Below, in pieces: positions 14,030 through 19,109 of a stretch of DNA of 64,000 bases (positions within the stretch are counted from its first letter, which is position 1; each line of letters starts with the position of its first letter). The position numbers were made by a program, and so were the translations under genes. Origin of the DNA: Octopus sinensis (taxonomy: Eukaryota); contig NC_043010.1 in NCBI RefSeq assembly GCF_006345805.1, positions 23,002,001 to 23,066,000 on the forward strand, given 5' to 3'. The notes under the pieces were generated by a model. The model had not been told where the DNA came from. It searched no databases and saw only the letters and a program-made list of their open reading frames with translations.

Positions 14030-14512
14030 GTCAATAATAAAAGGGTAAAATTAATTAATTATCAATTAATTTTACCAAGTAGTGTTCAGTATGTAAAAAG
14101 ACCATTTACGGTATATTTAAAACATTATGTTATATACTTAGGGTTCAGTAAAATAATTTACTTTACCACACACCGAACTTTTAGAAATAGCAGCCAAAAA
14201 ATCTTAGCTATTTCCTCTACTATAAGAAAAGTCTCCCAGACAATGTATACTCAAAAATAATTCACGCAGGTATAGAGGGAAAAATAACGAAAGATCACAC
14301 GTACATCGATTACTTGAGAACGCCGTTTCTGGATTAGTTGGATATAGAGATCAACATTTCCGTCATCAGCCCAAGATTTCTTTAGGTTTGGATTTGAGAG
14401 CACTAAAAATCGACCATACCCGTCTGATATGAGTAATCCCAGACAAACCATCTTCGACCGCTAGTACTAATGAATTCAAAAAATAGAAATCTTGGGCTGA
14501 TGACGGAAATGT
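14030..14512 (-). mobile_element. Penelope-like element terminal (pLTR) remnant with a short inverted copy
   Basis: Carries a type I hammerhead on the minus strand; perfect 28-bp inverted repeat 14354-14381 / 14485-14512. Confidence 0.6.
14313..14375 (-). ncRNA. Type I hammerhead ribozyme (PLE-type, short stem III)
   Basis: Minus strand: CTTGGG-CTGATGA-CGGA..TCCA-GAAAC-GGC-GTT-CTCAAG; stem I CTTGGG/CTCAAG, intact core, C-A mismatch at the base of stem II. Confidence 0.7.
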
Positions 14513-14562
14513 GCAAGTTGTTTGCAAGACATCTAAGACCTTGTGGTAGGTAACCACTGACA

Positions 14563-14658
14563 AACCGGAAAGACGGTTAGGCATCTTGGAAAGACAAGAG
14601 GACTGCTCGGAAAGACCAGCGGACAATAGGAAAGACTATCGACACCAGGAAAGACTGG
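14563..14658 (+). repeat. Array of five stem-loops with invariant GGAAAGAC in the HERO 5' leader
   Basis: GGAAAGAC at 14567, 14588, 14609, 14629 and 14648, each flanked by a different complementary stem. Confidence 0.9.
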
Positions 14659-14783
14659 CGGAGGCTGCGGACTTACGATCCTCGCCTCTGTATTTTATTG
14701 TAACAGACATAACAGGAAATGACAGCCCCACGATTGACCGAGAGGGGGGAGTCTAGAATCAATCAAACCCAGTCAGCACGGAA

Positions 14784-17700
14784 ATGACCTCTGAAACGAA
14801 CATGATTATTCATTCGAACAGCGAACGAACTGCAAACAACTTTGGATGCAAGCTGGGCTATAGAACCTTTGCAACTGAGAGAGGTTTGAAGATACATCAG
14901 GGAAAGACTTGTGAGAAGAGGACAGAGCAGTGTGGATCGTCAGATCGTAAAACACGTGGCAAATCATCCCCGGACTCAAACCACAGCGGATCGATAAATG
15001 CTACAGCAGAGAACTCTTCACGTGAAGAAACTACAAGTCATGAAACTGGTGCATCAGATAATATTCAGAGGAAACCGAGGGTTTTGTGGCCTGCTGCTAA
15101 TGAGAAAGTGAAATATAAAGAGTTTGAAAACAAGGTTGTCGGGCTCTTTATAAAATGACAGGCTCTACAGTGAGAAACTGGGAAAATTATCAAGCTCAAT
15201 ATACGATAGGAAAAGATTTATTTGTGGAATAAAAGAGAATATCCGACTAGAGAAAGGAAAGTGTGGACCAAGCAGAGGGGATCAGAAAAATGCAGCAGTT
15301 GAGGAAGGAAAAGTCCGACTTAAGAAAGCGATGGAGATGTGCTGCCTAGAGATGAGAAACCTGGCCTTGCGTTGCTGTATAACGATTTGAAGAGGAAATG
15401 TCGTTATGTGCAACGACATATCCGCCGATATGAGCGTCGAAAAGAAAGTAAAAGGACTCGGAGGCAGTTTCTGAAGGACCCGTACGGGTTTACTAAGAAG
15501 CTGTTCACTGAACCGAAGAGTGGTACTTTATCGTGCACTAAAGAAGAATTGGATGCTCATATCAAGGAAACCTACAGCGATCCGCACCGTAATCAGCCGC
15601 TGCCACCTCTACATGGGCTAAATCATCTCTCAGGACCTGATATCTAATTCCAGATTGGGGACATCAGGGAGAGAGAGGTGAATGATTTCGTAAGAAAAGC
15701 TAGAGCAAAGAGTGCCCCAGGAGGTGATGGCGTCTCATATAAAGTCTACAAATACTGCAATCGTCTGCGAAAGAATCTCTTCGTCCTAATCCGACAACTG
15801 TGGCGCGAGGAGACTATAGTAGAGGATTGGTGTAAGGCAGAAGGTATATACCTGACGAAAGAGGCCAATGCAAAGACCATAAAACAGTTTAGGCCGATAT
15901 CCTTATTGAATGTGGAAAGCAAGATCATTATGGGAATTCTGTCGAGGAGAACAGTGACATATTTACAGAGTAACGGATATGTTGATGAATCTGTTCAAAA
16001 GGCCGGAATCCCCGGGATCCCTGGATGCGTTGAACGCTGTTTTTCGATTTGGAAAGAGATCCAGGATGCCAAACAGAACAAGAAAAGTCTGAACGTGGTA
16101 TGGCTCGACCTAGCTTACGCGTATGGTTCAGTGCCACACAAATTACTAATAACAGCCATGGACCACTTCCACATTCCTGACAAAGTGATCAAAATAATGA
16201 GGATGTACTATGAAAGTTTCGAAATGAGGTTTACAACTGGAAATTTTACAACAAATTGGCACCGATTGGAGGTTGGCATTGCTGCTGGCTGTACAATATC
16301 TGTCACGTGGTTTATCTTAGTCATGGAGTTGATTTTAAAAGGTGTAGATTTTTCGGAACAAATCGCCCATGTACAATCGCCTAAGAAAGCCTTCATGGAT
16401 GACGTGACACTTCTAGCTACAGATAAACAAATCATGCAGAATGCCCCCTTTTGAGATTAGACGAACTTGTAAGGTGGTCAAGGATGCGATTTAGAGCAAA
16501 AAAGTCGCGTAGTCTGACATTTGTTAAGGGAGTGCAGAAAGAATTTAAATTTCGAATATCTGAAGAAAGCATTCCAACAGTCAAGGAAGAGCCCGTCAAG
16601 AGCTTGGGACGAGTATACGCTGGAACATTGTCAGACAGAAGTCGTGGGATTGAAATTATGAAACAGGCCGAGGCTGGGTTATCAGCGATTGATGTTTCGA
16701 AGTTACCAGGTAAATATAAAATTTGGTGCTTGCAGTTCGGCTTGTACCCGCGACTTGCGTGGCCACTTGTAATATACGAAGTAGCATTGTCACGAGTTGA
16801 AAGGATTGAACAAAAATGTAATGTGTTCATTAGAAAGTGGCTAGGTCTACCTCGTATGTTGAACAGCTCAGCTCTTTATCGTAAAAGAGGTTCGTTGCAG
16901 TTACCAATAGCATCAATAGTCGAAATATATAAGTTGGGGAAGATACGGACGGTCATGATGCTGAGAGAATCGAAGGATATGGAAATTAGGCGTAATGCAC
17001 CAGAGGTGAAAACAGCCAGGAAGTGGAAAGCAGAAGCAGAAACTGACAACATCTTGTCTTCTCTTATACACGGAGATATGGTGGGAGCAATGCAGAACCA
17101 TCGGAAAGGATTTGGTTTTGGCGCAGATCAGTTCAGACCGTTTGCAAGCATGATACCGTGTGAACGCAGATCTGTTGTTAGCAACAGCGTCAAAACAAGA
17201 GAAGCAGAGAGAAGAGAGCTTCATTTGATCCGATGTGTTCATCAAGGTCAGATGACGAGATGGGAAGAACATGTTGTTGAGAGGAAGATAAGTTGGGATG
17301 AGATGTGGAAGTGGACGACATCTCGGCTGAGTTTCCTGATTCGTTCATCTTATGATGTTTTGCCATCACCTACGAATCTAGTAAGATGGAACGTCTTAGA
17401 GAATGACATCTGCAAATGTGGAAAAGTCGGTACACTAAAACATATTCTTTCCAACTGTTCATTAGCATTGAACAGGTACACATGGAGGCACAACTTGGTC
17501 CTTAAGGTTATCTTCAATGCTATAAAGAACCAAATTCATCTCAACAACACTGAGGAAAAATCGTTAAAAGTACCATCAAGAGAGTTCATTACCTGTGCGA
17601 CCAGGTCAGCAGATCCGTTTCAAGAAGAAGACCAAGAAACTTCCTGAGAAAAATGAAAAGTGGAAAGGCTATTGGGAGGTAACTGCAGATTTACCTGGGT

Positions 17701-18077
17701 GCCAGGTTTTCTTTCCCATCTCAGTTTCGAAAAAACCACATATTTTGATGTGGTGTGAAAGAAAGAAAGTTGTAAATATAGTCGAGCTAACGGTTCCTCA
17801 CGAAGATAATATGGACGCCGCTCGAGCTCGAAAATTAAACCGTTATGAAAAGCTCCTCGAGGAATGTGAAGACGCGGGCTGGAAAGCGGAACATTTTCCT
17901 ATCGAAGTCGGATGTAGAGGGTTTGTAGGACACAGCGTGAGACGACTGTTGTTATCGTTAGGCCTAACTCATCGTAAAGTCAATACCACCATGACTGATA
18001 TCCAATCTACAGTGGAGAAGGCTAGCCACTGGATTTGGTTAAAAAGAGACGATGAGCGATGGCTAGAAGTATATTGA
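14784..18077 (+). pseudogene. HERO polyprotein (Zn finger - RT - CCHC - REL) broken by frameshifts and a stop
   Basis: Pieces 14784-15158 (C..RTFATERGLKIHQGKTC), 15339-15647, 15678-16454 (SAPGGDG, FRPISLLN, WLDLAYAYGSV, AFMDD), 16451-17647 (VKSLGR, CKCGKVGTLKHILSNC, RYTWRHN), 17595-18077 (KPHILMW, VELTVPHE, RKLNRY, IEVGCRGF). In-frame TAA at 15645-15647; the REL PD appears as PH. Confidence 0.9.
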
Positions 18078-18118
18078 GTTCTTCATAACCAGCTGATCTA
18101 GCAAGCGGGGCTTCATAT

Positions 18119-18204
18119 CAGTGAGGGGGGCCGGTGCGTACTGATGCCGTCGAGAGGTAGGCCCCGAAACGGCGCGCATTCTCTCCTGATGACCCCATAC
18201 ACTG
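18119..18204 (+). ncRNA. Candidate permuted/pseudoknotted hammerhead ribozyme in the HERO 3' UTR
   Basis: GUC triplet (18149-18151), GAAA (18166-18169) and CUGAUGA (18186-18192), with stem I GAGAG/CTCTC and stem III GCCGT/ACGGC in exact hammerhead register but non-standard strand order. Confidence 0.7.
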
Positions 18205-19109
18205 GCTAGCTTCCGATATACGGAGCTTTTAACCGGTAGCACTTGCATGTGCAAGTTGTTTGCAAGACATCTATATATATATATATATATATATATATAT
18301 ATATATATATATATATATATAGATATATATATATATATATATATGTATATATATATATATATATATATATATATATATATATATATATATATATATATAT
18401 TATATATATATATATATATATATATATATATGTATGTATATATTATATAGTATATTGGATTTGGATTTCTCTCCTTATACTCTTCCTGCAAATTATAGTC
18501 TGGCCATGAGCAGAATAATTCAACTGGTTTCACCAGATAAAGCTATTTTGGTAAATGTTAATTAATTCCTGAACAACATCCTCTTTTTTGAATGCGTGGA
18601 GAGAGACAGAGAGAGAGTAGGAGAATGAGAAAGAGAAAGAAAGAAAGTGGGAGAGGGAAGAGGAGGGGCAGAGAGAGGATATTGGGATATTGATAATTAA
18701 ATATAATTGATATTCTGTGAATATTTTGATCTAGAATATCTACGTAACTAAGTTAATTACACCTAGGAGAATTAATTGTTACTAAAATATGACAACAAAA
18801 GAAAAACAAAAAAACAAAAAATTTAACCAGCGAACGTCTAATTGTACCGTATTATCGCTTATTATTATCATATTATCTTAGGGCAGTGGGCTGACAGAAT
18901 CATTAGAGCTTCGAAAATAAAAAAAAAAGGAAGAAAGAATAAAAAAGAAAAGAAAAATACCTCGTGGAATGTGTTTCAAATTTTCTCCGTCTGGTTTCAA
19001 ATCGCGCTGAGGTCAACTTTGCATTCCTCCTTTGGTAATCAAGAAAATGAAATATCAATCAATTTCAAGGCTGAATGTTATCGATTAACCCTTAATGTCA
19101 GGTCACTTG

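Follow-up and report, generated by a model that had tools for sequence, protein, structure and literature searches.

Organization of the element in the window

The stretch of DNA analyzed here (the window, 64,000 nucleotides of contig NC_043010.1 of Octopus sinensis) contains, on its forward strand at positions 14509-18273, a decayed HERO-like retrotransposon that specifies a reverse transcriptase and a restriction-like endonuclease (RT-REL). The HERO label is an assumption that follows the earlier note and characteristic motifs. Four features of the element, namely a copy of its 3′ end at its 5′ end, an array of hairpins, the RT-REL frame, and a hammerhead ribozyme core behind that frame, had been described in an earlier note on this DNA as one integrated system, and all four were found in the sequence as one conserved system of the element family.

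The element begins with a 27-bp extension at 14509-14535 that is identical (100%) to 18247-18273, as the earlier note had reported. It consists of the last 27 nucleotides of the element joined head-to-tail to the start of the unit. The extension is followed by a 5′ untranslated region (UTR; 14536-14700) that comprises a short leader, five stem-loops with GAAAGA loops, and one more hairpin. A single broken open reading frame (ORF; 14730-18077) then specifies an N-terminal zinc finger, a reverse transcriptase with an FMDD motif, a CCHC knuckle, and a restriction-like endonuclease region, and its stop codon occupies 18075-18077. Behind the ribozyme, the 3′ tail (18210-18273) has two predicted hairpins. 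The RT-REL frame is present as claimed previously, but the term ORF was too strong for this copy, because the frame is split into at least five pieces by stops near 14754 and 15645 and by frameshifts near 15135-15350, 16450, and 17590-17645. The window copy is a dead end, because its ORF is broken and its extension of only 27 nucleotides is too short to contain an upstream ribozyme. Its hammerhead core is intact, with few changes in the stems relative to other copies.

A target-site duplication was considered for the 27-mer and was ruled out. Most 5′-complete copies carry the same 27-mer, and it is therefore element sequence. Immediately to the left of the element lies an imperfect inverted repeat (14354-14512, approximately 160 bp, 70%), probably an older insert resembling a miniature inverted-repeat transposable element, whose right arm includes ATGT, the first four nucleotides of the 27-mer. 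On its right side the element is bordered by (TA)n, and the flanks therefore cannot be joined into a single uninterrupted target.

A hammerhead with a split stem II in the 3′ UTR

The hammerhead core of the window copy consists of GUC at 18149-18151, GAAA at 18166-18169, and CUGAUGA at 18186-18192. The predicted cut lies between 18151 and 18152, which is 74 nucleotides past the stop codon and agrees with the distance of about 75 nucleotides given earlier for the core. The three parts of the core are contained in three blocks. Block S (18145-18157) holds the 3′ strand of stem III, the GUC, and the 5′ strand of stem I; block G (18160-18174) holds the 3′ strand of helix IIb with C11.1, the GAAA, and the 5′ strand of stem III; and block C (18180-18209) holds the 3′ strand of stem I, the CUGAUGA, and the 3′ strand of helix IIa. 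The order of the blocks is therefore cut site, GAAA, CUGAUGA (S-G-C), which is the non-circular order of type SGC.

Blocks C and G cannot form stem II directly with each other, because the strands after CUGAUGA and before GAAA are both C-runs. Each of them pairs with a G-run of its own further upstream, the two G-runs being separated by a hairpin. The 5′ strand of helix IIa (18098-18110), which is made up of an outer 8-bp part and the G-run at 18107-18110, pairs with 18193-18209, while the 5′ strand of helix IIb (18127-18132), which is the source of G10.1, pairs with 18160-18165. The junction hairpin (18111-18126) fills the interval between IIa and IIb with zero spacer bases on either side, and the 5′ strand of a pseudoknot (18134-18139) pairs with 18174-18179. 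The fold thus has six helices (IIa, junction hairpin, IIb, pseudoknot, III, and I), and stem II is split by a four-way junction between A9 and G10.1, with G10.1 supplied by a detached upstream strand. The CUGANGA, GAAA, and NUH core with stems I and III, and the G10.1-C11.1 pair closing stem II, are those of a hammerhead. In contrast to the intact block C of type SGC, the strand past CUGANGA pairs with a separate upstream strand to form helix IIa. Rfam gave no match for the hammerhead core region of the window. HDV-like (hepatitis delta virus-like), twister, and pistol folds were considered for 18100-18200 and dropped by eye, with only simple-repeat noise from Rfam.

Conservation of the fold was examined in related loci, which were the best 80 of 137 from metagenome contigs and had 31-57% identity. 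The core motif was present in 49 of the 67 related loci that continue for at least 250 nucleotides after the ORF, compared to 5 of 241 coding windows. A structure parser was complete in 49 of 81 regions, which reduced to 23 non-redundant families. When the cut site was picked by stem III alone, at least four of the five positions of stem I were paired in all 23 families (shuffles: mean 1.6, maximum 6), and when only IIa and IIb were picked, 18 of 23 families had a fully paired junction hairpin (shuffles: mean 0.4, maximum 3); the fit is overstated in this test, because the families were chosen for having parsed. Each of the six helices uses several pair types among the 19 best-scoring families, and helix pairing was 96-100% within families versus 45-75% across families. 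The parser imposed U16.1 and a non-G at the cut, but it imposed neither C15.2-G16.2, which was found in 19 of 19 families, nor G10.1-C11.1, which was G-C in 16 families, G-U in two, and C-G in one. By its core and by covariation, the 3′ UTR ribozyme is a hammerhead with predicted self-cleavage.

In terms of the loci that had no core match, inspection of the 18 by eye gave about ten decayed versions and about eight without the motif. The 3′ UTRs of three other loci (L080, L101, and L103) have intact stems despite a changed catalytic heptamer, and their ribozymes could be dead or variant. No relative was confirmed in viral contigs.

Terminal redundancy and the head-to-tail joint

The analysis of copies was performed on one assembly of 2.7 Gb, in which 2023 3′-end candidates and 98 5′-end candidates were found, 40 of each being scored. 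Twenty-nine independent insertions reach the hairpin array when duplicated loci are counted once, and 24 of these carry their own 3′ end in front, head-to-tail, over 27-982 nucleotides. Two of the remaining five have about 10 nucleotides of the 3′ end, three start inside the array, and none begins at the unit start. Terminal redundancy is therefore element-borne and general, and the 27-nucleotide extension in the window is the shortest clear case of a family-wide partial tandem. The earlier note had expected 5′-complete copies to reach back at most to 18152. The data do not agree with this, because 20 of the 24 extensions continue beyond the cut site, the longest by about 860 nucleotides, and 15 are long enough for a full second ribozyme. 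Copies with an inverted 5′ part were found at only two loci, L057 and L069.

The exact head-to-tail joint occurred 29 times (duplicates of one insertion on contig C18 included) and the control occurred 0 times. Among 78 distinct 3′ ends, 44 fell in the last five positions, six extended 1-3 nucleotides further, 21 were uninformative through substitutions, and seven were joints. Unlike the fixed joint, the true 3′ ends scatter over about 8 nucleotides.

The two repeats of an insertion were then compared with each other and with the 3′ ends of other copies. The 982-nucleotide extension of L061 differs from its own 3′ end at three positions, versus 4.2% from 22 other copies, and the two repeats share 20 variants, nine of which were found in no other 3′ end sampled. 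A private variant was shared by both repeats in 7 of 15 testable insertions, and 13 of the 15 were nearer to their own 3′ end than to the mean of other copies, three of them marginally. Since the repeats are closer to their own end and share private variants, it is likely that both repeats of an insertion come from one unit-length template.

These data bear on whether linear templates alone could account for the element. In such a scheme, uncut read-through of partial tandems, or jumps from the 5′ end to the 3′ end between linear RNAs, would generate the redundancy, and the ribozyme would serve turnover or regulation. The scheme has the advantage that it uses ordinary target-primed reverse transcription and no new step, and it agrees with the fact that most copies are plain 5′ truncations, as is evident from the numbers of 3′-end and 5′-end candidates, and that arrays of two or more units were not seen. 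However, inherited extensions could only shrink and their repeats would keep parental differences, whereas the L061 repeats, with about 20 variants in them, differ at 3 of 982 positions; the joint never varies but the 3′ ends do; and 0 of the 40 5′ matches listed start at the unit start. We therefore regard linear templates as improbable. Still more improbable is an origin at the DNA level, in which truncated copies were inserted before resident copies, or gene conversion or assembly error produced the repeats, the likeness to a hammerhead being incidental. Duplications of copies at the DNA level do exist, as described below, and a single assembly underlies the copy analysis, but the private variants within insertions, the invariant joint, the covariation across distant families, and the exact starts at the cut site (see below) all argue against it.

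Other families show similar arrangements. Tail-to-array joints were found in them as well, and among 24 long contigs there are seven in which 3′ sequence recurs roughly one unit upstream, in one case at only 73% identity; these contigs are short-read assemblies in which copies may be merged. In contigs from 8 of 24 listed sequencing runs, none of them recorded as RNA, one contig of a run guessed to be RNA spans the joint; it was not counted as evidence, because genomic tandems share the joint and contigs do not reveal RNA ends.

Several further arrangements were observed among the copies. On C18 at about 3.78-5.16 Mb (L041-L056, L069, L070, L171, and L172) one deleted insertion is present in at least nine copies whose extensions all begin at the same point; segmental duplication has spread these copies, and one pair of them is inverted. 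At L186:2538-4274, three tandem copies of a 5′-truncated piece occur together with a simple-repeat flank; these were ruled out as rolling copies, because the flank is repeated too, and the triple is a DNA duplication. Internally deleted copies that retain the array and the ribozyme were found at L033, L038, L043, L044, L057, L160, L161, L164, and L188, most with a 5′ extension, and a left breakpoint at element position 767 is common to three such copies. These are candidates for non-autonomous mini-elements. Splicing was ruled out as the source of the deletions, since the nine junctions examined have no GT-AG pattern.

Probable footprints of cleavage at the predicted cut site

The genome was searched with a pattern requiring non-element bases immediately before the predicted cut. 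Twelve matches were obtained, of which eight start exactly at 18152 and the other four are merely mutated copies. Six of the eight are stand-alone inserts of about 120 nucleotides, and two are template-switch chimeras in which the 18152 end is joined to internal parts of the element. The same test at control sites gave truncations in 0 of 1 matches at 18190, 0 of 8 at 18160, and 2 of 4 at 18142. The genomic copies thus mark an RNA end at 18151/18152. A structural stall is an unlikely cause of these ends, because an enzyme that reaches 18152 has already copied the partners in stems I and III. Cleavage in vivo at this position is very probable, judging by these footprints. Unrelated variable target-site duplications, lack of terminal redundancy, and lack of cleavage at 18151, which the earlier note had named as signs against its proposal, are not what was found.

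A smaller cluster of 5′ ends is present at 18133-18142 (L037, L043, L163, L165, L197, and L199), 10-19 nucleotides upstream of the cut, and may have arisen where the reverse transcriptase paused around the pseudoknot. The contig of L085:1 starts 1-2 nucleotides from the predicted cut of its family, which may be chance or a cut RNA end.

An end at the cut can be interpreted in terms of a nicked circle, in which the ribozyme cuts, the ends of the monomer remain paired but unligated, and the reverse transcriptase jumps the nick. R2-type enzymes jump between RNA ends, and the inserts that stop at the cut, the chimeras that jump from it, and scars at the cut in two copies (a 4-nucleotide insertion, and a 19-nucleotide duplication ending at the cut) fit this scheme. 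However, end-to-end jumps usually add bases, and crossings of the cut site are almost always seamless, with 0 length changes in the first 100 of 633 copies listed. Genome-wide, insertions of at least 2 nucleotides near the cut gave four matches, and the two scars were the only ones exactly at the cut; a search for deletions near the cut gave one match, a GA slip beside it. We consider a nicked circle unlikely, though less so than linear templates. Frequent ligation scars were also ruled out, as scars at the cut are rare in the element family.

The proposal that the ribozyme of an upstream copy makes the 5′ end of the next unit is only partly in agreement with these results. Ends at 18151/18152 do occur, but the 5′ end of a linear template is not simply set by the ribozyme, because the reverse transcriptase crosses the cut site.

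The GAAAGA hairpin array

The five GGAAAGAC hairpins were located at 14567, 14588, 14609, 14629, and 14648, which bears out the number given earlier. The array spans 14567-14655 with a spacing of 19-21 nucleotides. The hairpin motif has eight matches in the window compared to 0.92 expected, and the z score of the array fold is -2.44. Clusters at approximately 20-nucleotide spacing were found in 12 of the 80 related loci, two of which are chance matches in coding sequence, and none on the minus strand. Similar arrays are therefore present in ten non-coding loci of other families, a count that is a lower bound because many contigs end before the 5′ UTR. GAAAGA is the commonest loop of the arrays (12 of 29), a CCAGTGAC-like motif stands ahead of most clusters, and in several loci the array follows directly after the 3′ tail. 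In the element, the array lies immediately 3′ of the putative priming window (see below) and about 75 nucleotides ahead of the conserved N-terminus. The recurrence of a sequence-specific loop at a fixed period suggests that the array is bound by protein, and it may serve either priming or translation.

The motifs GKT, RKD, and GKD were observed at the N-termini of predicted proteins (P0002, P0012, P0021, P0043, P0106, P0117, and others), with 15 matches in the first 50 amino acids of 38 long proteins, which is about seven times background. These N-termini look like gene calls that run into the hairpin array.

The protein, the family, and its insertion sites

The element family is widespread in animals. 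Intact homologues of 1000-1200 amino acids are common among the best 120 of 348 matches, and the named homologues among the matches listed are unclassified proteins of fish, lancelets, and sea urchin. Pfam assigned RVT_1 and a weak zf-RVT to the homologues, their best PDB matches are R2 proteins, and the reverse transcriptase also matches L1 structures. The element has the single ORF with reverse transcriptase, C-terminal CCHC knuckle, and restriction-like endonuclease that is typical of HERO; the last of these is presumed from motifs and not from a profile match.

The flanks of 45 insertions are unrelated, and several lie in simple repeats. Target duplications of more than 6 nucleotides were absent from 40 of the 45, four had matches only within microsatellites, and one had a clear duplication of 17 nucleotides. 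This pattern fits HERO elements, which, according to PMC4640811, insert mostly without site specificity, some families being found in microsatellites. In terms of the other candidate groups, the element resembles Penelope elements in its partial tandem insertions, the repeated part of which holds a hammerhead, but no GIY-YIG family was found in the Pfam scans, and the reverse transcriptase is like R2 and L1 structures. Membership of the R2 clade, with its 28S rDNA target and 5′ HDV-like ribozyme, does not agree with the dispersed flanks, and no Rfam match to an HDV-like ribozyme was obtained in 13500-19500.

A proposed replication cycle

Taken together, our data favor a cycle in which the hammerhead likely cuts at 18151/18152 and the template is likely a re-ligated circle of 3,738 nucleotides, copied from an internal start by the array; we give this reading a probability of about 0.65. 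It agrees with the earlier suggestion of propagation from tandem or circular transcripts, which the genomic copies fit. The starting material is a 5′-complete copy, which is a partial tandem and, in 15 of the 24 insertions with extensions, has room in front for a second full ribozyme. Cutting of a tandem transcript after each GUC would free a unit-length monomer, a step strongly indicated by the genomic footprints. Both catalytic strands would remain in the 3′ product, and the pairing strands of IIa, IIb, the pseudoknot, and stem III in the 5′ product; this would let the two ends of the monomer pair again over more than 20 bp, after which they would be joined by the reverse of the ribozyme chemistry or by a host ligase. 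Priming by the protein would then take place internally, at about 18269-18273, immediately 5′ of the array. This priming site is deduced from the ends of the insertions, most of which fall within it. The array likely replaces the free 3′ end that a circle lacks; a rival role would be cap-independent translation. More than one round of copying would rebuild the partial tandem, shorter runs would leave dead 5′-truncated copies, and cut RNA that was not ligated would give the 122-nucleotide inserts.

Several points weigh against this reading. Cleavage, ligation, and circular RNA are deduced from genomic copies and not from direct observation, and the contigs of sequencing runs cannot show RNA ends and come from runs without RNA designation. 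The earlier note had proposed a search for tandem arrays, and arrays with at least two full units were absent from the loci examined, short deleted derivatives included, where the longest tandem was 1.26 units; some would be expected, because free rolling on a small circle should give them. The repeats of two of the 15 testable insertions (L057 and L167) are no more alike than random copies, and those of three more are about equal. The control site at 18142 gave two truncations of its own, and single-base indels at the cut were examined in only 100 of the 633 copies. As for the ribozyme, besides the selection of the 23 families, about 8 of 67 loci have no hammerhead motif by eye, and the core is changed in L080 (C3 to U) and in L101 and L103 (C3 to U and G8 to A).

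Extended to the whole clade of REL-type long interspersed nuclear elements (LINEs), the proposal is that these elements replicate via a protein-coding circular RNA, with a hammerhead of four strand blocks and a four-way junction, and that priming takes place internally, at an array-marked site, and not at a free 3′ end. They would have arrived at the Penelope cycle by convergence, their enzyme, nuclease, and ribozyme wiring being different from those of Penelope elements. We lean towards this broader proposal.

Comparison with known systems

No description of a hammerhead, a circle, or a partial tandem in HERO was found in the literature searched, which covered neither Repbase, nor the papers that first described HERO, nor most journals behind a subscription, and the supplementary figures of PMC10085705 as text only; an earlier description is therefore possible. 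The element is of interest for several reasons. The fold breaks a rule stated for hammerhead architecture, that nothing is inserted between CUGAnGA and stem II. It also means that animal genomes contain non-circular hammerheads, which escape standard descriptors and Rfam. The circle model for partial-tandem retroelements, long proposed and unproven, becomes directly testable in a single-ORF element related to R2, for which the cut site, the priming site, and the unit length are predicted. Finally, an RT-REL protein capable of internal priming on circular RNA, at unspecific sites, would be of interest to those who build retrotransposon insertion tools.

The ribozyme is closest to type SGC, the non-circular hammerhead of HRIMA-1 and its variants (Eckert et al. 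2023, PMC10085705). The two are alike in the S-G-C order, the full CUGAnGA/GAAA/NUH core, a short linker that connects stem I to the stem II strand, and an additional helix formed by a pseudoknot. However, CUGAnGA is assumed there to run straight into the stem II strand, whereas in the element a fourth strand, located upstream, provides G10.1, and A9 and G10.1 are separated by an inserted helix and hairpin.

The element also resembles R2 and related REL LINEs (PMC7650587 and PMC13580325), with which it shares the single RT-REL ORF and a ribozyme predicted to process read-through transcripts. Unlike R2, which has a 5′ HDV-like ribozyme, it has a 3′ UTR hammerhead and terminal redundancy, it is not specific to ribosomal DNA, and its priming site would be internal to the repeat unit. 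Retrozymes of the type without long terminal repeats (non-LTR; bioRxiv 10.64898/2026.07.22.740005; see also PMC7229834) are similar in that circular RNAs made by hammerheads are proposed as templates for retrotransposition, but they are short and non-coding, with type I hammerheads and long arrays, whereas the element represents a coding family of 3.7 kb.

The closest parallel in replication is with Penelope-like elements, for which a cycle of cutting, ligation, and copying of more than one unit was proposed by Cervera and de la Pena (PMC4209133) and partial tandems were described in PMC8557442. Both systems have partial head-to-tail tandems, heavy 5′ truncation, and a hammerhead in the repeated part. 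Penelope-like elements, however, have a telomerase-like reverse transcriptase, a GIY-YIG nuclease, and, in pseudo-LTRs, minimal hammerheads that are circularly permuted and often dimeric, while the element has an R2/L1-like reverse transcriptase, a nuclease region of the restriction-like kind, a non-circular ribozyme of six helices, and a hairpin array. The element works like a Penelope element, but it is not one.

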